From NCBI GenBank assembly GCA_040902005.1, contig JBBDYA010000045.1, positions 90,757-154,756 of the forward strand: a DNA stretch of 64,000 bases, written 5' to 3'. Shown in pieces: positions 46,056 through 58,840 of this stretch. Source of the stretch: Gemmatimonadaceae bacterium. GTDB taxonomy: Bacteria; Gemmatimonadota; Gemmatimonadetes; Gemmatimonadales; Gemmatimonadaceae. How positions within the stretch are numbered: position 1 is the stretch's first letter; every line of letters begins with the position of its first letter. The position numbers were made by a program, and so were the translations under genes. The notes below the pieces were generated by a model that saw nothing but the letters and a program-made list of their open reading frames with translations, had not been told where the DNA came from and did not search any database.

Positions 46056-47336
46056 GTGGACCGCGCGCTCCTCGTGGGCGCGCCGCTCAAACGCGCGCGT
46101 GCGCGCGCGGATCTGCGCGAGCACCTCGACGAGCTCGCGCGACTGGTGGACACCGCGGGCGCCGTCATCGTGGGCGAGCTAACGCAACAGCTCGACCGTC
46201 CGCATGCCGCGACGTATCTCGGCGCTGGCAAGATCGATGAATTGCGGCAGATGGTCATCGACACGCAGGCCACCATCGTCGTGTTCGACGACGAACTCTC
46301 GCCCTCGCAGGCGAAGAACATCGAGGACTCCATCGGGCAGCGGGTCGTCGACCGCGCGGAGTTGATTCTGGACATCTTCGCCACGCGGGCCCGCTCGGCA
46401 GAAGCGAAGGTGCAGGTCGAGTTGGCGCAACTGGAGTACATGCTCCCGCGCCTGACGCGCATGTGGACCCACCTCGAGAAGTTTCGCGGCGGTATCGGCG
46501 TCCGGGGTCCCGGCGAAACACAGCTGGAGACGGACCGCCGGCTGATCAGCCATCGCATCAAGCTTCTGCGTGCGAAGCTGCGCGAGGTCACAAAAGGGCG
46601 CGCCGTGCAGCGGCAGGGACGCCGTGGCGAGTTCAAGGCGTCCCTTGTCGGCTACACGAACGCGGGCAAGTCGTCGCTGCTGCGCTCGCTCGCGAACGCG
46701 CAGGACATCTTCGTGGAAGACCGGCTGTTCGCGACACTGGATCCGCTGACGCGGGAAGTGAAGCTCGACGACCACGCGAAGGCACTCGTGACCGACACGG
46801 TTGGCTTCATTCGCAAGCTCCCCCACCACCTGGTCGCGTCGTTTCGTGCGACGCTGGAGGAGGCGCGTGAGGCAGACCTGCTGCTGCACGTGATCGACGC
46901 GTCGCACGCCATGTGGGAGGAGCAGCGCGGCGTAGTGGAGGACGTGCTGAAGAGCCTGGAGCTTCACGAGCGTCCGGCACTCCTGGTCTTCAACAAGGTG
47001 GACCTGCTGGACGAGCAGGAGCTCCTGGCGTTGCAGGAGCGCATGGCATCCGACGGGCAGGAGGCGGTCTTCGTGTCCGCCGTGAGCCCGGACGGCACCC
47101 TGCCGCTTCGCCGCGCCCTTCAGGGCGCCATGCGGGTTCGGCGCCCGCTCGCGGAGATCAACCTGTCGCCCGCCGACGGGAAGATGCTCGCCGAGATTCA
47201 TCAGTACGGCGAGGTGCTTGATCAGCGCACCATCGGAGAGCGGCTCGTCCTGCGCGCACGGATCGGCGAGAAGCTCGCGGGTCGACTGCGCCGGGCTGGC
47301 GCCATCGTCGACCGAGAGAATACCGCCGGGTCATGA
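46056..47336 (+). CDS. hflX: GTPase HflX (start may lie upstream at ATC 46023)
   Basis: GPGETQLETDRR, GYTNAGKSS, LFATLDP, DTVGFI, NKVD. Confidence 0.95.
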   Translation: MDRALLVGAPLKRARARADLREHLDELARLVDTAGAVIVGELTQQLDRPHAATYLGAGKIDELRQMVIDTQATIVVFDDELSPSQAKNIEDSIGQRVVDRAELILDIFATRARSAEAKVQVELAQLEYMLPRLTRMWTHLEKFRGGIGVRGPGETQLETDRRLISHRIKLLRAKLREVTKGRAVQRQGRRGEFKASLVGYTNAGKSSLLRSLANAQDIFVEDRLFATLDPLTREVKLDDHAKALVTDTVGFIRKLPHHLVASFRATLEEAREADLLLHVIDASHAMWEEQRGVVEDVLKSLELHERPALLVFNKVDLLDEQELLALQERMASDGQEAVFVSAVSPDGTLPLRRALQGAMRVRRPLAEINLSPADGKMLAEIHQYGEVLDQRTIGERLVLRARIGEKLAGRLRRAGAIVDRENTAGS

Positions 47337-48343
47337 TCGCCGTCGTCACCGGCGGCAGTGGCTTCATCGGCCGGAATCTGATCCGGCGCCTGCTCGCGGA
47401 CGGGCATCGGGTGCGGTGTCTCGTGCGTCCATCCGGGGGCGATCCGCCAGCCGACGTGGCGCGATATCTCGTTGCGCTGGACGATCCACGCGCGCTCGCG
47501 CGATGTCCCGCATTCGAGGGGGCGGACGTCGTCTTTCATCTCGCGGGCGCCACGAGGGCTGTCCGGTTCAGGGACTTTGCCACCGCCAACGTGGGGCCCA
47601 CCCGGCAGCTGCTTGGCGCGCTGGCGCATCGGGGCCTCGGGCCACGGTTTGTATTCGTGTCGTCACAGGCGGCAGCGGGTCCTGCCACCACCGCGGACCG
47701 ACCCGTGGTCGAGACGGATGAACCGCGTCCCATCGAGCCCTACGGCGCGAGCAAGCTCGAAGCCGAACGCGTGGTGCAGGCGCACTCGGATCGCGTGCCG
47801 GTCACGATTCTCAGGCCGTCAGCGGTGTTCGGCCCGCACGATCGCGATTTTCTCATGCTCTTCCGCATGGCTGTTCGCGGGATGATCCTGTACCCGGGCG
47901 TCGCGACGCACTGGCTGTCCCTCGTTCACGTGGATGACGTGGTGGACGCGCTTCTCGCGGTGGCCGTCCAGGACCGTGCCGTTGGGCGCACGTACTTCAT
48001 CACCGCGCCGGATGCGATTCGCTGGCGCGCGTTGGGAGAGCAGGTCGGGTTGGTGACGGGGCGCGCGGTTCGCCATGTCGATCTGCCGGCCCCGGTGGTG
48101 TTTGCCGCCGCGACCGTTGGCGACTGGTTCGGGCGCCTGACGCGTTCGACGCCGATCGCCACCCGGAGCAAGGCCGCGCTGTCGCGAGCGCCGTACTGGG
48201 TGTGTTCCGCGGCACGCGCGGGGGAGGAGCTTGGCGTTCGTGCCTCGCGTTCACTCCCTGACGCGCTGGCGGACACGTACCTTTGGTATCGCCAACACGG
48301 ATGGTTGCGCGGCCCGCGACGAGGCAGCGCGATCCCCGCCTGA
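47333..48343 (+). CDS. NAD-dependent epimerase/dehydratase (extended SDR); candidate ceramide or 3-keto-sphingoid reductase
   Basis: TGGSGFIG, VSSQAAAGP, YGASK, RPSAVFGPHD; precedes the FAAL-ACP-AOS gene. Confidence 0.8.
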   Translation: MIAVVTGGSGFIGRNLIRRLLADGHRVRCLVRPSGGDPPADVARYLVALDDPRALARCPAFEGADVVFHLAGATRAVRFRDFATANVGPTRQLLGALAHRGLGPRFVFVSSQAAAGPATTADRPVVETDEPRPIEPYGASKLEAERVVQAHSDRVPVTILRPSAVFGPHDRDFLMLFRMAVRGMILYPGVATHWLSLVHVDDVVDALLAVAVQDRAVGRTYFITAPDAIRWRALGEQVGLVTGRAVRHVDLPAPVVFAAATVGDWFGRLTRSTPIATRSKAALSRAPYWVCSAARAGEELGVRASRSLPDALADTYLWYRQHGWLRGPRRGSAIPA

Positions 48344-48353
48344 ACGATCCACG

Positions 48354-51300
48354 ATGTCCGCTCACTTTACATCTCCGACGCCACCAGCCCTCGCGGCTTC
48401 CCTCGACGATGATCGGCTGGTCGAGAGCTGTGAGACCCTGGTGGACCTGCTTCGCCGCCGTGCCGAGCAAGGCGGGGAGCGCGTGGTGTACCGTTTTCTC
48501 CCTGGCGACAACAAGCCGGAGCAGCGGATCACGTATAAGGAGCTGGATCGACGCGCGACGGCTCTCGCGTCGGCCATTCGCCAGCATGCGAAGCCAGGAG
48601 AGCGCGCGCTAATCCTCGTGCCGTCCGGGCTGGACTACATCGCCACGTATTTCGCGTGCCTCTACGCCGGCGTGGTCGCCGTGCCGGCGTACCCTCCCAA
48701 TCCGCGGCGTCCGGATCCGCGGATTCCCGGCATCGTGGCCGACTGTGAGCCGGTCGTTGCACTGACCACCGCCGCCCTGCTGGATCGACTGGAGCATTGG
48801 CGAGGAGGGGACGAGCGCCTCGGCGCGCTGCGCTGGCTTGCAGCCGACGCGCCCGTCGATCCATCGATTGCGCCCGTCGAGCATCAGGCGGGAGCGCACG
48901 ACGTCGCCATGCTGCAGTACACGTCCGGCTCGACCGCCGCGCCGAAGGGGGTGGTGCTCACGCACGCCAATCTGCTGCACAACCTTTCGTTGATTCGGGC
49001 AGCGTTCAACGTCCGGCACGGGTCCGATGACGTGGGTGTGTTCTGGTTGCCGCCGTATCACGACATGGGGCTGATCGGCGGCATCCTCCAGCCTTGCTAC
49101 GTGGGCCGCGGTGCCGTGCTGATGGCGTCCGCGACGTTTCTCCAGCGGCCGCTGTCGTGGCTGGAGGCCATGTCGAAGTATCGTGCGACGACGAGCGCCG
49201 CCCCGAACTTTGCGTTCGACATGTGCGTGGAACGCATCAAGCCCGAGGACATGCGCGGACTCGACCTGTCCGCGTGGCACACGGTCTTTGACGGTGCGGA
49301 GCCAATTCGAGCGGACACGATCGAGCGGTTCTCGAAAGCGTTCGCCGACGTCGGCTTCCGAAGCGAAGCGTTCTTTCCCTGTTACGGCCTCGCGGAGGCC
49401 ACGCTGTTCGTGTCGGGCGGCCCCTGGGGCCACGGCCCGTACACGCTCGATGTCTCGCGGTCGGAGCTCGAGCACACCCGCGCGCGCCCAGCCATGGCCG
49501 GGGACCGGCTGCGCCTGGTCTCATCGGGCGCGGCGGCTACCGGCCAGATGGTGCGCATCGTGAATCCGGACACGCTGGAGCCGCTGGACGATCGGCGGGT
49601 GGGTGAGATCTGGTGCAGCGGTCGAAGCGTGGCCGGCGGGTATTGGCGCAATCCTGCCGAGTCGACGCGCACCTTCGGGGCGACCCTTCCTGGTGATGGC
49701 GGGCGCTACCTGCGCACGGGCGACCTCGGTTTTCTGGACGACGGCCAGTTATTCGTTACCGGACGCCTCAAGGATCTCATCGTCCTTGCCGGACGAAACT
49801 ATTACCCACAGGACATCGAGCTGGCCGCCGAGCGCAGCCACCCCAGTCTGCGGCCCGGCCATGCGGCCGCATTTCCGCTGGACGGCCCGACTCGCGAGTT
49901 GCTCGCGGTCGCGCTCGAGGTCACGCGGCATCATCGCGAGAGCGACAACGAGGCGGTATTTGCGGCCGTCCGTCGCGCGCTTGCGGGCCGCGCTGGCATT
50001 CTACCCGATGTCATTCTGCTGATCAGGCAGAACGGCATTCCGCGGACCTCGAGCGGCAAGGTGCAGCGCCGGGCGGCTCGCGCCATGCAGATCGAGAACA
50101 CGCTGGATGTGCTCGCCCGGTCCGACGAAACGCTCGACGACATTGCGTTCGCGGTGTCCGACGGCGGCGATGTGAGCGCGGCGCCGCTGGAGGCGTGGCT
50201 GCGTCGCTGGGTCGCCGACGAGCTGCAGATCGACGTCCGCAGCGTGGATCCAACCGCGTCGGTGCGGGACTACGGCCTGGATTCCGTGGCGGCCGTTCGC
50301 CTGGTCACGGAGCTGGAGCAGGTCCTTGGCCACCGCGTTGACGTCGCGCTGCTCTGGCGCGAGCCCTCGATCCGATCATTGTCGAAGGCGCTCGAATCTC
50401 GCGGGGCCGTGCTCTCGGCGAGCGAGGAAGACGAGCGCGCCGCTCGACGGAGCGACGAGCGACTGGTGTCACCACTCGCGGCGTCCGAGTTTCCGGAATA
50501 TCGCCTGCTGCAAGCCAGGTTCGAGGAGCTGGACCGGCACGGCCTGGAGAACCCGTATTTCCGGGTGCACGACGGCGTGACGGGGAGCGCCGCGCGCATC
50601 GGCGGACGGGACGTCGTGAATTTCGCGAACTACAACTATCTCGGCCTGTCGGGCGACGAACGCGTGAACGTGGCCGCGGTCGAGGCAATCCGGCGCTACG
50701 GCACCTCGGTATCCGCGAGCCGTGTCGTCTCCGGCGAACGATCGGTCCACCAGGAGCTCGAGCAGGAGCTGGCCGGTTTCATCGGCGTGGAGGATTGCGT
50801 TCTCTTCATCGGTGGCGTGACCGCGAACGTGTCGACCATCGCGCACCTGGTTGGCGCCGGAGACGTGGTGCTCTGTGACGAACTGTTGCACAACAGCGCG
50901 ATGCAGGGGGCGCTGTTCTCCGGAGCGCACCGTCTGGCCTTTCCGCACAACGACGCGGCGGCGGCGGATCGTCTCCTCGGCGAAGTGAGGGCGAAGTACC
51001 GACGGGCGCTGATCGTCATCGAAGGTGTCTACAGCGCGGACGGCGACATTCCGGACCTGGCGAGCTTCGTCGCCCTGAAGCGCCGGCATGAAGCCTGGCT
51101 GATGGTGGACGAAGCGCACTCGATCGGCGTCCTCGGCGCGACCGGGCGCGGGCTCGCGGAACATGCCGGCGTGTCAACGCGAAGCGTGGACCTGTGGATG
51201 GGGACCCTGTCGAAGTCGCTCGCCAGCGTGGGAGGGTACATCGGCGCCCGCCGGGAAATCATCCAGTACCTGAAGTACACGGCTCCGGGCTTCGTCTTCA

Positions 51301-51668
51301 GCGTCGGCATGGCACCCGCGAGTGCGGCCGCGGCGCTCGAAGCACTGCGTATCCTGCGGCGGGAGCCGCAGCGTGTGCAGGCGCTGCAGGCCAATGCGGC
51401 GCTGTTCCTCGAGCTGGCGAAGGGACACGGGTTGAACACCGGATCGAGCGCGAACACACCGATCATTCCGGTCATCACCGGCGACTCGCTGCAGGCGGTA
51501 CGCCTCTCGCAGCAACTGCTGGAGCACGGGATCAACGTGCAGCCAATGGTGGCGCCGTCAGTGAGCGAGTCGGGCGCCCGCCTGCGCTTTTTCGTCGCTT
51601 CCACGCATTCCCCCGATGACATCCAGCGGACGGTGGAATTGACGGCGTCTCTGGTCCGGCGTTCGTAA
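48354..51668 (+). CDS. Fatty acyl-AMP ligase - ACP - PLP alpha-oxoamine synthase (SPT-like) fusion
   Basis: FAAL: LQYTSGSTAAPKGV, WLPPYHDMGLIG, CYGLAEATL, YLRTGDLGF, PRTSSGK. ACP: YGLDSV (Ser codon 50283). AOS: NYNYLGL, EGVYSADGD, DEAHSIG, GTLSKS (Lys codon 51213), RLRFF. Confidence 0.9.
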   Translation: MSAHFTSPTPPALAASLDDDRLVESCETLVDLLRRRAEQGGERVVYRFLPGDNKPEQRITYKELDRRATALASAIRQHAKPGERALILVPSGLDYIATYFACLYAGVVAVPAYPPNPRRPDPRIPGIVADCEPVVALTTAALLDRLEHWRGGDERLGALRWLAADAPVDPSIAPVEHQAGAHDVAMLQYTSGSTAAPKGVVLTHANLLHNLSLIRAAFNVRHGSDDVGVFWLPPYHDMGLIGGILQPCYVGRGAVLMASATFLQRPLSWLEAMSKYRATTSAAPNFAFDMCVERIKPEDMRGLDLSAWHTVFDGAEPIRADTIERFSKAFADVGFRSEAFFPCYGLAEATLFVSGGPWGHGPYTLDVSRSELEHTRARPAMAGDRLRLVSSGAAATGQMVRIVNPDTLEPLDDRRVGEIWCSGRSVAGGYWRNPAESTRTFGATLPGDGGRYLRTGDLGFLDDGQLFVTGRLKDLIVLAGRNYYPQDIELAAERSHPSLRPGHAAAFPLDGPTRELLAVALEVTRHHRESDNEAVFAAVRRALAGRAGILPDVILLIRQNGIPRTSSGKVQRRAARAMQIENTLDVLARSDETLDDIAFAVSDGGDVSAAPLEAWLRRWVADELQIDVRSVDPTASVRDYGLDSVAAVRLVTELEQVLGHRVDVALLWREPSIRSLSKALESRGAVLSASEEDERAARRSDERLVSPLAASEFPEYRLLQARFEELDRHGLENPYFRVHDGVTGSAARIGGRDVVNFANYNYLGLSGDERVNVAAVEAIRRYGTSVSASRVVSGERSVHQELEQELAGFIGVEDCVLFIGGVTANVSTIAHLVGAGDVVLCDELLHNSAMQGALFSGAHRLAFPHNDAAAADRLLGEVRAKYRRALIVIEGVYSADGDIPDLASFVALKRRHEAWLMVDEAHSIGVLGATGRGLAEHAGVSTRSVDLWMGTLSKSLASVGGYIGARREIIQYLKYTAPGFVFSVGMAPASAAAALEALRILRREPQRVQALQANAALFLELAKGHGLNTGSSANTPIIPVITGDSLQAVRLSQQLLEHGINVQPMVAPSVSESGARLRFFVASTHSPDDIQRTVELTASLVRRS

Positions 51669-51683
51669 CCGCGCGGCCGGGGA

Positions 51684-52358
51684 ATGCCGTACGGCTACGT
51701 GGGAACGTGTCTCGGAACCGTGGCAGCGTCATCGGGCGCCGTCGCGGAACTCTGGTACGCGCGCGTGGGTGAGCATGAAGCCCAGCTCGATCTGTACAGC
51801 CGCGACTATCTCTCCGAGGACGAGCAGCGGCGGCAGCGGAGGTATCGGGGACGTGGGGCTGCCGAGCGCTACGTAGTGACGCGCTCGCTCGTGCGGGGCG
51901 TATTGTCGGAGCGGCTCGGCGTGCCACCCCGCGAAGTGCCGGTCAATCGCACGGACACGGGCAAGCCGGTCATCAGCGGCGGCGTGCACTTCAACGTGAG
52001 CCACTCCGGAGACCTGATTCTGCTCGCCCTGAGCGTCGAGCGCGCGATCGGTGTCGACGTGGAGCGGCGACGCGACATCGCCCGCGTGGAGGCGCTGGTC
52101 CGGCGGTGGCTGTCGGAGACGGAGCGCACCGCGGTAGTACGGCTCGGCGCGATGGGCGCGTCACCCTCCGACGCCTTCCTCCGCGTCTGGAGCCTGAAGG
52201 AGGCGCGGCTGAAGGCGTTGGGGGTCGGCATCGCCGGACAGTCAGGGGCCGACGAGCTGCTCGCCGGCGTCGAAGTGAGTCCGCTGGACGACCTGCTGGC
52301 GTCGATCGCGACGGACGGTGACGATCAGGGCTATGTGGGCGCTGTAGCGTTCGCGTGA
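51684..52358 (+). CDS. Sfp-type 4'-phosphopantetheinyl transferase (start uncertain)
   Basis: GKP, FNVSHSG, IGVDVE, WSLKEARLKALG. Confidence 0.88.
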   Translation: MPYGYVGTCLGTVAASSGAVAELWYARVGEHEAQLDLYSRDYLSEDEQRRQRRYRGRGAAERYVVTRSLVRGVLSERLGVPPREVPVNRTDTGKPVISGGVHFNVSHSGDLILLALSVERAIGVDVERRRDIARVEALVRRWLSETERTAVVRLGAMGASPSDAFLRVWSLKEARLKALGVGIAGQSGADELLAGVEVSPLDDLLASIATDGDDQGYVGAVAFA

Positions 52359-53176
52359 GCGCGGCGGGTGAGGCGCATGCCGATCACGGCGACCGCCCCC
52401 CCCGCGAGCGCTCCAGCGATCACGTCTACCGCGTAGTGAAAGCCGCCATAGATCGCGCCGGCGGCCAGGGCCGTCGTGAGTCCCGCCAGCCACCAGCCGC
52501 GCGCCCCGAAGTAGCGCACCGCGAGAATGGATTGCGTCACCGCGACCGCCACGTGCGACGAGGGAAAGGCCGTGCCCTTGGAGGAGCGCGCTTCGAGCAG
52601 CCAGAGCGTGAACGCCCGCAGCGGTCCTGGCGCCATCCCGTGCGATTCGGACCACACGTACCGCGGCCCGGCGACGGGGAGGAGCAGGTAGCAGGCAAAA
52701 CACGTCACGAATGCGAGCATCAGCACGAACACGGCGTCGTGGAACTCCGCGATGCGACGCCGGAGCCACAGCAGCACGGGGACTGAAAAAACGATGGCGT
52801 AGTAACTCAGGTAGGCGCCATGCAGCATTTCGCTGACCGGCCTCCAGGGCATCTGGATCGCCCACGCCCGCGCCGGCTGGCCGCCGAACAGCGCCTGCTC
52901 CCATGCCATGACGCGCGCGTCGAAGAACCCGTCGTGCCCTACGGCCCGGATGAGCATGGGCATCTCGGAATACAGCAGCAGCAGCGCGAGCATCGGCGAC
53001 CACTGTCGAAGCCACGTGGGAGCCCGTTGCCACCACGTGGCCGCGACGATCGCGGCCAGCAGCGCGAAGTGAACGAGTATGCCGACGCCAGAGACGCGAT
53101 CGCGTCCGGCCAGGAGGAGGGTGCCGGTGACGGCGAGATAGCACACCAGGAGCGCGCCAGCCCATATTGCCCGCAT
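52331..53176 (-). CDS. PAP2-family membrane protein, Aur1/inositol phosphorylceramide synthase-like
   Basis: Multiple TMs, PVAGPRY, AFPSSHV, GFHYAVD; ATG at 53176. Confidence 0.8.
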   Translation of the reverse strand: MRAIWAGALLVCYLAVTGTLLLAGRDRVSGVGILVHFALLAAIVAATWWQRAPTWLRQWSPMLALLLLYSEMPMLIRAVGHDGFFDARVMAWEQALFGGQPARAWAIQMPWRPVSEMLHGAYLSYYAIVFSVPVLLWLRRRIAEFHDAVFVLMLAFVTCFACYLLLPVAGPRYVWSESHGMAPGPLRAFTLWLLEARSSKGTAFPSSHVAVAVTQSILAVRYFGARGWWLAGLTTALAAGAIYGGFHYAVDVIAGALAGGAVAVIGMRLTRRAHANATAPT

Positions 53177-54323
53177 GTCGCTTGAGATCGTCCCCGTGGA
53201 GCGTGGCCGTGACCGCTCCGCTTTCATAGATGTGGCGTGGCACATACCGGAAGCCACGCGGCATCCCCGGTGGGTGCCGCCGCTGCGAATGATGGTGCGT
53301 GACCTGCTCGACACCAAGGGGAATCCCTTCTACCGAAACGCCGATCGGGCGCTGTTCATCGCGCGCCGCGACGGCCGCCCGGTGGGGCGCATCGCCGCCA
53401 TCGAGAACCGCGCCCACAACCGAGCCCACTCCGACCGGACCGGGTTCTTCGGCTTCTTCGAGTGCGTCGATGATGCTGCGGCCGCGAGCGCCCTGTTCGA
53501 CGCCGCGGAGCGATGGTTGGCGGCACGGGGGCTGACGGCGATGCGGGGCCCCATGAGTCCGTCGACGAACCACGAGTGCGGCCTGCTGGTCGAGGGTGTC
53601 GACGAGCACCCGATGTTTCTCACACCGTGGAATCCTGCGTATTACGAAAGGCTCATCCTGGGGGCCGGTTTCACCACCATCCGTGATTTACTCGGCTACT
53701 GGCTACCGTATGGCGAGCCGGGCTTCCAGCTTGCGCCGAGAATCGAAGCAATGGCCTTACGGGCAAAGGCCAGGGCGAACCTCGCATTTCGCGACATGGA
53801 GGCCGCCCGATTCTGGCAGGATGTGGAGCTGGTCTGGGAGATCTACAATTCCGCATGGGAGCGGAACTGGGGGTTTGTGCCCATGACGCGCGACGAATTC
53901 CTGCACATGGCCAGGTCGCTCAAGCCACTTCTGGTACCCCGGTTTGCCTTTCTCGCGGAAGTGGACGGCGTTCCCGCCGGGTTCATGCTCTCGGCTCCCG
54001 ATTTCAATCGCGCCATCAGACGCATCGGGAACGGGCGGCTGTTGCCGTTCGGGTTCGTTCGGCTGTTGCGCGAACGATCGCGCGCGCGCACGGGACGCGT
54101 TATCGCGTTCGGCATCCGGGAACAGTTCCGCAACCAGAGTGTGCTGCCGGTATTCATGCATGAGGCGGCGAGACGCGCCATCGCCTACGGGTCTCCCGGC
54201 TCGGAGGCGTCCTGGATCCTGGAGGACAACGTGGGCATGCGGCAGGGCATCGAGGCGTTCGGCGGTCGCGTGTATCGTCGCTGGCGGATCTTCGAGCGCC
54301 AGATCGCGCCCCGCCCCGCGTGA
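53175..54323 (+). CDS. GNAT-fold acyltransferase, bacterial ceramide synthase (bCerS/YghO)-like
   Basis: WVPPL, GRIAA, GFFGFFEC, RGPMSPSTNHECGLLVEG, WNPAYY, YNSAWERNWGFVP, SWILEDN. Confidence 0.75.
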   Translation: MSLEIVPVERGRDRSAFIDVAWHIPEATRHPRWVPPLRMMVRDLLDTKGNPFYRNADRALFIARRDGRPVGRIAAIENRAHNRAHSDRTGFFGFFECVDDAAAASALFDAAERWLAARGLTAMRGPMSPSTNHECGLLVEGVDEHPMFLTPWNPAYYERLILGAGFTTIRDLLGYWLPYGEPGFQLAPRIEAMALRAKARANLAFRDMEAARFWQDVELVWEIYNSAWERNWGFVPMTRDEFLHMARSLKPLLVPRFAFLAEVDGVPAGFMLSAPDFNRAIRRIGNGRLLPFGFVRLLRERSRARTGRVIAFGIREQFRNQSVLPVFMHEAARRAIAYGSPGSEASWILEDNVGMRQGIEAFGGRVYRRWRIFERQIAPRPA

Positions 54324-54324
54324 C

Positions 54325-55446
54325 GTGAGCGCGCGACGCATCGCGATCGTCAGCGACTGGTTCGCGCCCCGACGCGGCGGAATCGAAGCGCAGCTGGCGC
54401 AGCTCGCGCAGCGCCTGGGCGCGCGCGGACATGCGGTGGACGTGTTCACCTCCACGCCTGGCGCGCGCGAGGGCGAGGGGTACCGGGTTCGGCCGGCCGA
54501 TGTCTGGACGCTGCCGGCGCTGCATCTCGCGGCGTCGCCGCGGCTCGTGCAGCGCCTGCGCCGCCAGCTGGACCAGGGGTACGACGTCGTGCACGCGCAC
54601 GTGAGCGTGGTGTCGCCACTGGGATACGCTGGGGCGATTGCTGCGCGGTCGCTCGGACTCCCAACGGTCCTGACCTTTCACTCGGTGCTGCACGCCAAGG
54701 CCCACGTGTTGCGGGCCGCGAGCGCCGTGCTCGATCTCCCGGCGAGCGCCATCGTGTGGACGGCTGTCAGCCGGCTCGTCGCGTTACAGGCGAAAAAGGC
54801 GATGGGCGTGCCCGTGCTCGAGTTGCCGAACGGCATCGAGCTGGCCGAGTGGCGCACCCTCCCCGGCGCGAGGACGCTGGAGACGCCGGTCACGATCGTG
54901 TCCGCGATGCGACTTCACCGAAAGAAGAGACCGAGGCAGCTGGTGGCGGCGTTCGCCCGCGCGGCCAAGCATGCGCGGCGACCGGCTCGTCTGCTCATCG
55001 TCGGCGATGGACCGGAACGCTCCGCGCTCGACCACGACATTCGCGCGCTCGGACTGAACGATGGTCCATCCCGCGTTGAGCTCCACGGCTGGGTGAACCC
55101 GAACGGATTGCGGGCCATGTACGGGGGAGCCCACGCGTTCGCGCTGGCGTCCCGGAACGAATCGTTCGGGATCGCGGCCCTCGAGGCGCGGGCCGCGGGC
55201 CTGCCAGTCATCGCGATGCGCCAGTCCGGGAGCAGCGAGTTTCTCGAGGACGGAACGGACGCGCTGCTGTGCGATGACGACGCGGACCTGTCACGCGCCC
55301 TGACCGAGGTGATTCGGGATGGCGCGCTCCGCGGGTGCCTGGGGCAACGGATTCCCGGCCTCGAGCGGTACGACTGGAGCGCCGTCCTGAACGGCCACGA
55401 GGCCGCCTACCAGCTGGCTACGACGCGCGCAACCGCCGTGGCATGA
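54325..55446 (+). CDS. GT4 glycosyltransferase (PIG-A/PimA-like)
   Basis: DWFAPRRGGIE, VVHAH, TFHS, PNGI, ESFGIAALEARAAGLPV (EX7E); GTG 54325. Confidence 0.85.
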   Translation: MSARRIAIVSDWFAPRRGGIEAQLAQLAQRLGARGHAVDVFTSTPGAREGEGYRVRPADVWTLPALHLAASPRLVQRLRRQLDQGYDVVHAHVSVVSPLGYAGAIAARSLGLPTVLTFHSVLHAKAHVLRAASAVLDLPASAIVWTAVSRLVALQAKKAMGVPVLELPNGIELAEWRTLPGARTLETPVTIVSAMRLHRKKRPRQLVAAFARAAKHARRPARLLIVGDGPERSALDHDIRALGLNDGPSRVELHGWVNPNGLRAMYGGAHAFALASRNESFGIAALEARAAGLPVIAMRQSGSSEFLEDGTDALLCDDDADLSRALTEVIRDGALRGCLGQRIPGLERYDWSAVLNGHEAAYQLATTRATAVA

Positions 55447-56401
55447 GTTGGCGAAGCGTGAGCAGCGCGTAGCCGGTGCCGATGGAGGGCAGCAGGAAGC
55501 AGAGATGCTGGACGACCGCCAGCCCCAGCGCGGTTTCCGCAGGTGTGCCCACGAAGCGGTACACCGCGAACACGGTCGCCTCGTAGATCCCGAGGTTGGC
55601 GGGCGCGATCGGGACCAGCGTCGACAGGGCGAGCGCGGCGACGATCAGGACGGCGGTGGAGAGCGAGGGTTCAACTCCGAACGCTGCCTGCACGGCCAGC
55701 ACGGCTGCCACCTCTGCGGCCTTCTTGAGGAGCGTCAGGACGGCGACCTGCCAAAGGCGGCGCGGCTCGCGCAGCGCATCCAGGTGCTGTCCCCACGCCG
55801 CGAGCGCGCCGAGGAGGCGGCGAGTGGTCGTGGGCATCGCGAGCAATCGCTCCCGGATCGCACTCCAATGGTGTGCGAGCGGAACGAGAAGGGCGAGCGA
55901 CGCGACCAGCACCAGCAGCAGGAGCACGAAACCCTTGCGCAGCCAGATCGGGATGGGCGCGATGGCGACCGCGAGCGAAAGCACCGACAGCTTCGCGAAT
56001 GCCACGAGCAGCTGATCCATCGCAAGCACCGAGAGCGCCGCGCCGCGCGAGAGCCCGGCCCGTGCAATCAGCAGCGCTACCGCGGACGCCTCCCCCGCGA
56101 GAAAAGGCACCGAGTTCAACACGCTCGCGGTCACGGCGACTACCTCGAACATCCGCGCGTACAGTATGCGCGCGGTTCCTGGCACCAGGATCCGCCATTC
56201 GAGCGCCCAGAGTGGCAGGATGGCGAAGTTGACCGCCAGGGCAAGGACGAGCCACATGGGCTTCACTCGTTGCAGCTCGGCTACGGCGCGATCCAGCGGC
56301 AGCGTTCGCAGCACCTGGACGAGTGCGAGTGTCAACGCGAGCCACAGAATCGGGAGCAGCCACGCCGTGACGGTCGACCGGCGGACGGCGGCGATCGTCA
56401 T
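55418..56401 (-). CDS. Lysylphosphatidylglycerol synthase TM-region (flippase-like) membrane protein
   Basis: Multiple TMs, NSVPFLAGE, PIAPANLGIYEA; ATG 56401 overlaps the deacetylase stop. Confidence 0.75.
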   Translation of the reverse strand: MTIAAVRRSTVTAWLLPILWLALTLALVQVLRTLPLDRAVAELQRVKPMWLVLALAVNFAILPLWALEWRILVPGTARILYARMFEVVAVTASVLNSVPFLAGEASAVALLIARAGLSRGAALSVLAMDQLLVAFAKLSVLSLAVAIAPIPIWLRKGFVLLLLVLVASLALLVPLAHHWSAIRERLLAMPTTTRRLLGALAAWGQHLDALREPRRLWQVAVLTLLKKAAEVAAVLAVQAAFGVEPSLSTAVLIVAALALSTLVPIAPANLGIYEATVFAVYRFVGTPAETALGLAVVQHLCFLLPSIGTGYALLTLRQLMPRRLRAS

Positions 56402-57138
56402 GCGGCCGCCAGTTGGGCACCGAGGCGGTCCATGCGAACAAACGTCGCGCCGCGGCGCTGAAAGAGATCGATGACTTCGCGCACGGCGCGCAGTGCCGGC
56501 TCGCCCGTGCGGAATCGACAGTCGAGACGCAGTCGCTCCCGCGTCAGGTCCACGAACTCCCATGGGTGCACGAACAGCACGACCGGCGAAGCGAGCGACA
56601 GCAGCCAGCGGTCGCGCAGCCAGCGCGGAAGGCGCAGCACAGAGGACGTCATCGATGCGGGGATGCGCGTCAGCGGGGTGCGCGCGGGCGGGCCGTAGTA
56701 CTCCGCCTTGTACCTGGCCTGTGACGAGTCGACGAGATATCCCTCCTCCACCAGCAGTGGCAGACAGGCGGTCGGCAAGCGCAGGTTGGGCGCGCGGAAG
56801 GACGTCACCGGCGCTCCGAACGCCCTCAACGCCGCCGTTGCCGCGCGCAGGTCCAGTTGTGCGTCCGCGGGAGGCATCCGGTCGAAGCGCTGATGCGTGT
56901 GTCCATGACATCCCAGCTCGTGCCCGCGAGCGATCACGTCACGGATACGCGCGGGAAAGCGCTCCGCCACCTGACCGGTGCAGAAACAAGTCGCGACGAC
57001 GCCCGCCTCATCGATCGCATCCAGCACCCTCGGCAAACCCTCCTCGATCCCGCGATATTGCGTCGCGAGATACGGCGGACAGTCGGGCTCCACGTCCACG
57101 CCGAGCGAAACGGCCAGCTTTCCGGGGAATGTGTTCAT
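56398..57138 (-). CDS. Polysaccharide deacetylase (CE4/NodB family)
   Basis: VDVE, HELGCHGHTH, FRAP, VDSS, FVHPWEF. Confidence 0.85.
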   Translation of the reverse strand: MNTFPGKLAVSLGVDVEPDCPPYLATQYRGIEEGLPRVLDAIDEAGVVATCFCTGQVAERFPARIRDVIARGHELGCHGHTHQRFDRMPPADAQLDLRAATAALRAFGAPVTSFRAPNLRLPTACLPLLVEEGYLVDSSQARYKAEYYGPPARTPLTRIPASMTSSVLRLPRWLRDRWLLSLASPVVLFVHPWEFVDLTRERLRLDCRFRTGEPALRAVREVIDLFQRRGATFVRMDRLGAQLAAA

Positions 57139-58763
57139 TGGCGCGTGCACTGAATCAAATTAGGCCGTTGGTGGCCGGGATGCTGATCGCCTTCGCGGAT
57201 GAGGCGCGCGCGCAGCCCGCCGCGACGGTGCCTGCGTCGAGCGCGATCTATCACTGGCTGGAATCCGTGACTGCCTGGTACCCGTCGCGTGATGTTCCCC
57301 TTGGCGTGCGACCGCTGTCGCGGACTCAGGTGGTGCGCATCGTGGCGCGGTTGCGCCGGGAGGTAGAGGCCGACAACGCGGGGAATCCTGGCCGGCGCGC
57401 CTTGGCGCTGCGGCAGCTTGCGGCGATCGATTCCGCGCTGGACGCCGAACCGGATGGCGCAGCCATCACGGGCCGCCTCTCGCTCGCCATGGAATTCTTC
57501 GGATCGAACGCGCGGCTCGACACCATCAAGTCCAACGGACTGGGGAGCATCGACGCCGTGTCGCACCCGTTCGGAGACCTGCGGCAGGGCTGGCCGAGTG
57601 AGCGTGGCGCCATTGTCAGCGTCGCTCCCACAGCCGCGCTCGGCCTGGGCCATCGGCTGGCGATCGTCGTTCAGCCGCGCGCATCGGTCTTTTCGCCGCC
57701 CGCTTCCAATGCCAGCGCTGAACTCGTGACGCAACGCGCCTATGTGCGGGGCGTCGTGCGGAACGTCGCGCTCAGGGCCGGTGCCGACGAGGTACTCTGG
57801 GGACAATCGTCGCGCGGAGCCCTCTTCATCGCCGGCAACGCCATGCCGCTCATGGCCATCACGGTCGGAACGGACGCGCCAGTGGTCCTGCCATGGCTGT
57901 TTCGCCTGGCGGGCCCGGTCAGCATCACAGGGATGGTCGCCGACCTCGGACGCGCCCAGGATCCGCCGCACACCAAGCTGGCCGGTTGGCACGTTGCCAT
58001 GCAGCCCTGGGCGCGATTCGAGCTCGGTGTGTCCGTGCTTGCGCAACAGGGTGGTCGGGGTGGGCCCGAGGCCAGCCTGGTCGATCGCGTGCTCGATCTG
58101 TTCCCACTGATCGACGCGCTCGACCCGCGACGCGGGGATTACCAGTTCTCCAACAAGCTGGCTGGCGGCAATCTCCGGCTTCGCTTTCCCGAGCTCTCCG
58201 GCCTGGACCTCCACTACGAACTGCTCATGGACGATTTCGACCTCCGTCGCTTCGAGAGCACGGTCGTGGATGATTTCAGTCACCTCGTGGGACTTCGGCT
58301 GCCGCTGCTCGTAGGGAGTGGACAGCTCGTGCTCCATGGCGAAGTGCACAACATGGGGCTGCGCCTCTACGAACATGCCCAGTTCCGCTCGGGCGTCACG
58401 TTCCGTGACCGGCTGATCGGGAGCCCCCTCGGACCCAACGCGAAAGGGGCCTATCTCTCCGTGAGGTGGCAGCCCTCTCCGCGAACGGAGTGGGAGGTGA
58501 CGCTCGCGGACGAGTCGCGTGATCCGAGCCTGTATACAGCCACCGCGTCCGGTGCGTTCGACGAGGGATTTGTGTTCATCCGGCAGACCGACGATCCGCG
58601 CCATCGCCGCCGGCGCGTCACGTCCGCGCTGTCCCGCAACGTGCCTGGCGGAGCCGTGCGAATGGCCGGCGGATACAACCACGCCTGGCGGAGCGGTGAG
58701 CCTCCACGGGGAGCGTGGCTGGGGCAGGTGTCCTTCACGACGCGGGGACCGCCGAGCTTCTGA
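57138..58763 (+). CDS. Capsule assembly Wzi-family outer membrane protein (start uncertain: 57129, 57138 or 57180)
   Basis: Signal-like N-terminus, RPLSR, WGQSSRGALFIAGNAMP, SNKLAG, YEH...IGSPLGPNA. Confidence 0.65.
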   Translation: MARALNQIRPLVAGMLIAFADEARAQPAATVPASSAIYHWLESVTAWYPSRDVPLGVRPLSRTQVVRIVARLRREVEADNAGNPGRRALALRQLAAIDSALDAEPDGAAITGRLSLAMEFFGSNARLDTIKSNGLGSIDAVSHPFGDLRQGWPSERGAIVSVAPTAALGLGHRLAIVVQPRASVFSPPASNASAELVTQRAYVRGVVRNVALRAGADEVLWGQSSRGALFIAGNAMPLMAITVGTDAPVVLPWLFRLAGPVSITGMVADLGRAQDPPHTKLAGWHVAMQPWARFELGVSVLAQQGGRGGPEASLVDRVLDLFPLIDALDPRRGDYQFSNKLAGGNLRLRFPELSGLDLHYELLMDDFDLRRFESTVVDDFSHLVGLRLPLLVGSGQLVLHGEVHNMGLRLYEHAQFRSGVTFRDRLIGSPLGPNAKGAYLSVRWQPSPRTEWEVTLADESRDPSLYTATASGAFDEGFVFIRQTDDPRHRRRRVTSALSRNVPGGAVRMAGGYNHAWRSGEPPRGAWLGQVSFTTRGPPSF

Positions 58764-58766
58764 CAA

Positions 58767-58840
58767 TGGTCCCGGTGGGACTCGAACCCACGACCCGACG
58801 ATTATGAGTCGCCTGCTCTAACCGGCTGAGCTACGGGACC
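58767..58840 (-). tRNA. tRNA with CAT anticodon, most likely tRNA-Ile2 (lysidine); CCA not encoded
   Basis: Reverse complement GGTCCCGTAGCTCAGCCGGTTAGAGCAGGCGACT-CAT-AATCGTCGGGTCGTGGGTTCGAGTCCCACCGGGACCA; anticodon arm resembles known Ile2 tRNAs. Confidence 0.9.

Follow-up and report, generated by a model that had tools for sequence, protein, structure and literature searches.

A putative ceramide-type sphingolipid gene cluster with a fused FAAL-ACP-oxoamine synthase in Gemmatimonadaceae

In Caulobacter crescentus and Escherichia coli B, ceramide synthesis has been assigned to AasR, AcpR, Spt, Epi and Aca, with a free fatty acid activated on a dedicated carrier (PMC9386255, PMC11087976). In Pseudomonas fluorescens MYb115, the PfSgaAB(C) system draws its acyl chain from an iterative polyketide synthase (PKS) instead, and PfSgaB, which forms 3-ketodihydrosphinganine, uses serine almost to the exclusion of alanine and glycine (PMC12134224). 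Here we describe nine genes at positions 47333..58763 of a 64,000-nucleotide stretch of DNA (the window) from a member of the Gemmatimonadaceae, the family to which the named close relatives also belong. We think that this cluster probably makes a serine-derived, ceramide-type membrane sphingolipid, with a fused starter protein in the place that a stand-alone serine palmitoyltransferase (Spt) holds in most relatives. Possibly, the ceramide is capped with a phospho-aminosugar head group.

The nine open reading frames (ORFs) are all intact, adjoining and real by an ORF and Pfam profile check, which bears out the original prediction of nine contiguous genes of these families. In order they encode an extended short-chain dehydrogenase/reductase (SDR, plus strand), a fusion of a fatty acyl-AMP ligase (FAAL), an acyl carrier protein (ACP) and an alpha-oxoamine synthase (AOS) (plus), a phosphopantetheinyl transferase (PPTase, plus), a PAP2 protein (minus), a GNAT protein (plus), a GT4 glycosyltransferase (plus), a flippase-like protein (minus), a CE4 deacetylase (minus) and a Wzi-like protein (plus). 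The best matches in the genome of the E. coli B proteins YghO, Epi, AasR and Spt, whose roles we take from PMC9386255, each lie in this block, and there is a homologue for all five functions of the AasR-AcpR-Spt, Epi and Aca system, including the activation of a free fatty acid on a dedicated carrier. Unlike in that system, a single polypeptide here combines the ligase, carrier and synthase, and the locus has a PPTase of its own as well as Aur1-like and amino-sugar genes alongside. The claim that every core function of ceramide synthesis has a candidate therefore stands as far as homology goes. Its Caulobacter-type framing does not, since neither the AOS, which is of the SgaB type, nor the FAAL is an orthologue of its counterpart there (Spt and AasR, respectively).

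The fusion is a single ORF of 1104 amino acids (48354..51668, plus strand) matching the AMP-binding, PP-binding and Aminotran_1_2 profiles. Its FAAL domain (48426..50114) is of the type that loads PKSs and non-ribosomal peptide synthetases (NRPSs), with the FAAL of a 'polyketide synthase', 7r7f, as its best PDB match (E 5.5e-153). The ACP domain (50196..50393; PF00550, residues 615-680) carries a phosphopantetheine site at Ser644 (GLDSV). In the pyridoxal phosphate (PLP)-dependent AOS domain (50469..51668), alignments find the PLP-site residues His846, Asp919, His922, Lys954 and Arg1078 intact. Judged by its domains, the fusion resembles AasR-AcpR-Spt in architecture, yet belongs to neither the AasR nor the Spt family. 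The Sfp-type PPTase that follows (51684..52358, plus strand; ACPS and AASDHPPT_N profiles) likely primes the ACP of the fusion. A scan of species genomes gave 129 loci, of which the best 80 were retained (35 from Gemmatimonadota and 45 others); in 28 of the 35 Gemmatimonadota loci a PPTase lies next to the fusion.

Genes, families, motifs, trees and distribution are established directly here; the reactions, substrates and products we infer. The PPTase would prime Ser644, after which the FAAL would adenylate a free fatty acid and load it onto the ACP. The SgaB-type PLP domain would condense the acyl chain with L-serine to 3-ketosphinganine, so that the fusion is predicted to be a one-protein 3-ketosphinganine synthase. 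The GNAT would attach the N-acyl chain and the SDR would reduce the ketone to give dihydroceramide, two steps whose order is disputed in Caulobacter (PMC11087976). The Aur1-like PAP2 protein would probably transfer a phospho-head group from a glycerophospholipid to the ceramide, and the optional GT4, CE4 and flippase-like proteins would probably add an N-acetylhexosamine (HexNAc) and then de-N-acetylate it to a cationic amino sugar.

Trees of the AOS domain were made from 54 rows as a quick tree only, and 21 of those rows, none of them HemA, were rerun carefully. In the 21-row tree the AOS falls in a clade (support 100/100) with SgaB-like, PKS-linked enzymes, beside the five Spt rows and not inside them; a split with support 96/93 parts this clade and the Spts from Kbl and BioF. 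The domain is 52% identical to WP_120266766.1, an SgaB-like Pseudomonas protein that is our proxy for PfSgaB, versus 32-36% to Spt, Kbl and BioF (34% to E. coli Spt in a pairwise comparison), and the proxy gives the same pattern of model scores. Among named relatives, the closest (47-55% identity) are either fused to a PKS or encoded next to one, and a Pseudomonas SgaB-like member of the clade is located behind a type I PKS gene. Scores below three Spt cut-offs and a place outside the Spt clade rule out a canonical Spt orthologue. Compared with PfSgaAB(C), the AOS at our locus is fused, its acyl donor would be FAAL-ACP rather than an iterative PKS, and its partners are a bacterial ceramide synthase (bCerS) homologue and a CerR-type SDR rather than SgaC and capsule-type genes.

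A grouping of this domain with BioF or Kbl had been named beforehand as an outcome fatal to the ceramide reading. That the AOS serves biotin synthesis or is a Kbl, in a cluster assembled by chance, is hardly credible. Its top NCBIfam model is indeed BioF, although below cut-off, and JGI calls its relatives 8-amino-7-oxononanoate synthase, but the tree sets it apart from both families, no BioB or BioD match is found in the genome (93% complete), Kbl is encoded by a separate gene elsewhere, and the synteny of the cluster is conserved. We reject this identity for the AOS, and the ceramide reading survives.

It is rather unlikely that the pathway runs by the same logic with alanine, glycine or cysteate as the AOS substrate, giving a 1-deoxy-ceramide or sulfonolipid-like product. 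The position of the AOS outside the canonical Spt clade would allow this, as would the replacement of the SGH motif of SgaB-type proteins by GGV, and 1-deoxysphingolipids are known in bacteria (PMC11334938). However, the loop GTSVSASR is identical to that in the printed sequence of the strongly serine-preferring PfSgaB. Aur1-like transferases, moreover, need a C1 hydroxyl, and an Aur1-like gene is found at 24 of the 35 Gemmatimonadota loci.

The FAAL is likewise excluded as an AasR orthologue: it is 35% identical to E. coli AasR, groups with PKS/NRPS loading domains outside the AasR clade, and reaches 372 of the 600 bits demanded by NF006624, versus 870 for E. coli AasR itself. With both FAAL and AOS grouping with PKS/NRPS parts, and with an arrangement of FAAL plus ACP-KS-AT-ACP-AOS (KS, ketosynthase; AT, acyltransferase) within the AOS clade (L089), the fusion might in principle make a released secondary metabolite, such as an acyl aminoketone or a RedL-like pyrrole precursor, that is tailored by other genes. 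We regard this as quite improbable. By Pfam, the fusion ORF lacks both KS and AT domains, the neighbouring genes are membrane-lipid enzymes, and the fusion exactly complements canonical Spt among bCerS carriers, as shown below.

The two remaining core enzymes fit a ceramide pathway. The GNAT gene (53175..54323, plus strand) encodes a tandem GNAT, with a weak Acetyltransf_1 match (21 bits) and homology to YghO. A genome-wide search with E. coli YghO matches this protein alone (34% over 383 amino acids, E 7e-70), which goes against the second outcome named as fatal, a GNAT that is no bCerS orthologue. Its predicted structure is a tandem GNAT fold (pLDDT, a model confidence score, of 87), for which the Foldseek matches, at 8-16% identity, were all generic tandem GNATs; sequence searches of the PDB with the GNAT and with the PAP2 protein found no close solved relative. 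This GNAT is likely an N-acyltransferase of the YghO/bCerS family. The SDR (47333..48343, plus strand), likely the 3-keto reductase, is CerR/Epi-like, with a Pfam Epimerase match (E 3.5e-38) and TGGSGFIG and YGASK motifs, and is the best match of E. coli Epi in the genome (30%, E 4e-35). In a quick tree it groups with Epi and some SDRs of spt operons (SH-aLRT 95), five further spt-operon SDRs falling outside. It has no hydrophobic segment; CerR is reported to be periplasmic in Caulobacter (PMC11087976).

The core of the cluster is well conserved close to home. In a sample of 10 genomes of the same genus, 14 other members of the family and 16 genomes from two other families, the fusion is present in 10/10, 1/14 and 0/16, respectively (genome G017 is counted only here and in the inositol tally below). 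The synteny survey that had been suggested thus finds the fusion at the same hflX-rfaE site in all ten congeners, although frameshifts break it up in G008, where the housekeeping neighbours are broken in the same way. At this locus the GNAT and PPTase genes are each present in all ten, the SDR in nine (G006 is cut by a contig end) and the PAP2 gene in nine. Over the wider scan, bCerS adjoins the AOS in 27 of the 35 Gemmatimonadota loci, and the eight misses are contigs that end at most 1.6 kb from the AOS.

A further pattern comes from a draw of 201 genomes of the order Gemmatimonadales, including 92, 92 and 16 from families f1 (that of the window), f2 and f3. In f1, bCerS is found in 13 of 92 genomes, nine with canonical Spt and four with the SgaB-type fusion; none has both, and 79 have none of the three. 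In f2, bCerS and canonical Spt are each found in 91 of 92, and in f3 in 15 and 14 of 16, with no SgaB-type match in either family. Of all 201 genomes, 114 have canonical Spt and 120 have bCerS, and most of f1 has neither. Searches found no canonical Spt in ten out of ten fusion-bearing relatives (G006 excluded), nor in the window genome, G000; the best matches of Spt queries in fusion genomes are 35-41% identical, compared with at least 57% for true Spt. This complementary distribution among bCerS carriers points to the substitution of canonical Spt by the fused SgaB-type synthase in these genomes. One genome, G165 (L130), combines canonical Spt with a GT4, a divergent PAP2 gene and a bCerS from the subclade of the fusion genomes (SH-aLRT 100).

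The arrangement in f2 and f3 is a stand-alone spt-GNAT-SDR(-PAP2) operon (L033-L035, L135-L142). Its Spt is canonical and Bacteroidota-like (536 of 640 bits on NF047600), and these loci, unlike the window, have no FAAL, ACP or PPTase match. Relative to the window proteins its GNAT is about 40% identical, its SDR 35-39% and its PAP2 37-42%. Some f3 genomes also have extra, distant YghO-family paralogues (29-37%; L143-L145), one type of which is near a CE4-containing gene.

Several points weigh against a serine-derived ceramide made by a substitute for Spt. The AOS is below cut-off on all three Spt models (319/640 bits on NF047600, 300/500 on NF047599 and 205/670 on NF047603) and scores best on BioF, also below cut-off (343/426). 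Serine use is known for one assayed member of a broad clade, some of whose enzymes are fused to PKSs and make uncharacterised products, and our link to that member is a proxy that resembles the printed PfSgaB by eye only (Fig. S6, PMC12134224). An Spt-like cyanobacterial AOS in which the residues are conserved made no 3-ketodihydrosphinganine (PMC8895605). The bCerS identity of the GNAT rests on YghO, a homologue of Caulobacter CC_1154, and so is one step removed, while the GNAT tree leaves descent from the spt operon of the order unresolved. Outside the Gemmatimonadota, bCerS adjoins the AOS in only 2 of 45 loci. Finally, the tallies use thresholds that we set ourselves (1e-30, 1e-95 and 1e-120) with at most nine candidates scored per genome, and the genomes counted are incomplete and related, hence not independent.

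Related architectures occur elsewhere. A stand-alone SgaB-type AOS adjoins a bCerS homologue at L086, L093 and L158, found in an Opitutaceae genome, in Falsiroseomonas and in a further family of Gemmatimonadota. FAAL-AOS fusions of a planctomycete type, about 1135-1180 amino acids long and in a separate FAAL subclade, are found at L079, L083, L087, L098, L104 and L126; these loci have no bCerS, which is encoded elsewhere in 5/5 genomes checked, all of them planctomycetes with the fusion. The fusion of G065 (L131:5600-10546) is 1649 amino acids long, because some 500 additional residues separate its FAAL from its ACP. By eye, we take this region to resemble an acyl-CoA dehydrogenase, and such a domain could desaturate the acyl chain to give an unsaturated long-chain base. 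In four of the ten congeneric genomes (L022:8568-9221, L027, L028 and L031) an ORF of 206-217 amino acids stands between the fusion and the PPTase; its N-terminus is twin-arginine-like and Pfam gives no match. In G014 an FAD-dependent oxidoreductase (Pfam DAO, L029:10239-11471) follows the fusion at the position that the PPTase has in the window. Plasmids of Diaphorobacter and Pseudomonas veronii (L151 and L153) carry runs of FAAL, ACP and AOS genes, the latter with yghO; therefore, ceramide-type clusters can be plasmid-borne. For L042, the label rkpG is presumptive.

Turning to the head group, the Aur1/IPC-synthase-like membrane protein (52331..53176, minus strand, start codon uncertain) matches PAP2_3 (PF14378, E 5.8e-17), and its triad His208, His247 and Asp251 is invariant in 11/11 aligned sequences. 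A PAP2 homologue also follows canonical spt operons. The protein is likely the head-group phosphotransferase. BT_1522 of Bacteroides thetaiotaomicron, an Aur1 homologue required for phosphatidylinositol (PI)-dihydroceramide (PMC9246714), is likewise a PAP2_3 protein with a His-His-Asp triad, a likeness at the level of the family, and our PAP2 gene, unlike BT_1522, is linked to ceramide-core genes and not to inositol genes. Outside the window, at C45:50845-52940 of G000, a gene for myo-inositol-phosphate synthase (MIPS) does adjoin an ORF that is CDP-alcohol phosphotransferase-like by its motif. However, MIPS is found in 38 of 41 genomes of the order. Inositol lipids may accordingly be common to the order, and MIPS is uninformative as a specific sign of an inositol head group; therefore, the donor for the phosphotransferase is not fixed.

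The amino-sugar genes are the GT4 (54325..55446, plus strand, by its Pfam profile), the flippase-like LPG_synthase_TM membrane protein (55418..56401, minus; PF03706, E 8.7e-29, and TIGR00374 above cut-off) and the CE4-type deacetylase Polysacc_deac_1 (56398..57138, minus; PF01522), with an ATG at 57138 and an ORF open to a GTG at 57150. The frame 55418-56911, given as plus strand in the ORF list, translates in the minus sense. A UDP-HexNAc is the likely GT4 donor because of the deacetylase partner. At the locus, this trio is present in seven of the ten genomes of the genus; G010 is cut by a contig end with its CE4 on another contig, and the trio was not found in G003 and G005 (88-89% complete). 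A second group of genomes has the Wzi, GT4, flippase and CE4 genes ahead of the SDR gene, on its upstream side, and a third order is seen in G014; the trio thus keeps company with the core through three gene orders.

A known system has the same make-up: GpgSDF makes glucosaminyl-phosphatidylglycerol (GlcN-PG) in Pseudomonas aeruginosa from a GT4, a deacetylase and a flippase-like protein, as in HexSDF of Clostridioides difficile (PMC12713373). It is thus possible, though we doubt it, that the ceramide core is as proposed while the trio makes a ceramide-independent GlcN-PG or glucosaminyl-PI, an arrangement compatible with a ceramide made by the core. The trio was also not found in G172 and G178, and in G165 the CE4 and flippase genes are about 28 kb from spt-bcerS. 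A shared product would further face a problem of topology: the active sites of Aur1-type enzymes face outward, and GT4 and CE4 have no hydrophobic segment (the flippase-like protein has about eight). Against a separate glycerolipid stand the three distinct gene orders in which the trio lies beside the core, and a CE4 orthologue in only 4 of the 201 genomes of the order, all with the fusion-type bCerS subclade; two fusion genomes of that draw are without one. On NF053787, the model for GlcN-PG synthase, our GT4 moreover scores just 42 bits where 480 are demanded, and so is no GpgS orthologue; and the trio, unlike GpgSDF and HexSDF, is split between the two strands and linked to ceramide genes.

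A more specific product, glucosaminyl-inositol-phosphoceramide, would arise from a one-protein, PKS-derived serine palmitoyltransferase, phosphoinositol transfer by the Aur1-like enzyme, and addition and de-N-acetylation of N-acetylglucosamine, making a bacterial counterpart to the core of glycosylphosphatidylinositols and glycosyl inositol phosphoceramides. We consider it unlikely. It is suggested by kinship to PimA, which is the best PDB match of the GT4 (tied with BshA-type proteins in a profile search), by weak PIGA matches in 7 of 11 GT4 members, by the inositol genes and by the restriction of CE4 to this bCerS subclade. For the ceramide cluster as a whole, the Aur1-like enzyme and the trio are best seen as optional parts, and the tie of the trio to ceramide is plausible. 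The idea of a ceramide that replaces lipopolysaccharide outright finds no support, as the genome has lpxC.

The last gene encodes a Wzi-like outer-membrane protein (Caps_assemb_Wzi; 57129..58763, plus strand, start uncertain; PF14052, E 1.5e-33). The gene accompanies the cluster in 6 of 10 genomes of the genus and at 15 of the 35 Gemmatimonadota loci, many of which are short, and its link is a loose one. With this and the absences of the trio, calling the cluster complete was an overstatement. The block is flanked by hflX, whose stop overlaps the SDR start (ATGA), and by a tRNA(CAT) gene (58767..58840, minus strand) that marks the boundary and also has a counterpart at the same site in relatives. 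GC content and GC at third codon positions (0.78-0.85 in the nine ORFs) are similar to those of flanking genes and the insertion site is kept across the genus, leaving a recent foreign island unsupported. A single operon is ruled out as well: the PAP2, flippase-like and CE4 genes are on the minus strand, and the block is therefore contiguous but not one transcript.

The start codons of the PAP2 and GNAT genes overlap head to head (CATG, 53174-53177), with no intergenic space between these divergent genes. A CATATT at 53163..53168 (plus strand), 6-7 nucleotides upstream of the GNAT ATG, is identical in 11/11 aligned sequences of the genus, including G005, which has no PAP2 match. It may serve as the -10 box of a promoter at 53163-53177 that is leaderless or bidirectional; a sigma-70 scan did not find a full promoter. 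The segment 47333-54323, put forward for expression in E. coli, holds genes on both strands in its native form. E. coli BL21 would be a poor host, because its ECD_02850-54 are homologues of the five Caulobacter ceramide genes (PMC9386255).

The kind of pathway is known. The new elements are the lineage, the pairing of an SgaB-type synthase with a bCerS/CerR pathway and the evidence for Spt substitution. Among the papers listed by our literature searches, none dealt with Gemmatimonadota sphingolipids, a FAAL-AOS sphingolipid fusion or the stand-alone Gemmatimonadales operon. Spt-like genes have already been predicted in 38 phyla (PMC11334938), and Gemmatimonadota may already figure in print as predicted sphingolipid producers.

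The locus would join two bacterial sphingolipid routes that have so far been described as separate, the PKS-linked SgaB-type synthase, here fused to a loader and carrier of its own, and the bCerS/CerR ceramide enzymes. The 1104-residue fusion offers a simple test case for the formation of 3-ketosphinganine from fatty acid and serine without CoA. If the proposal is true, ceramide makers can escape a survey limited to canonical Spt. For the Gemmatimonadales themselves, with bCerS in 120 of the 201 genomes sampled, ceramide synthesis is predicted across much of the order.

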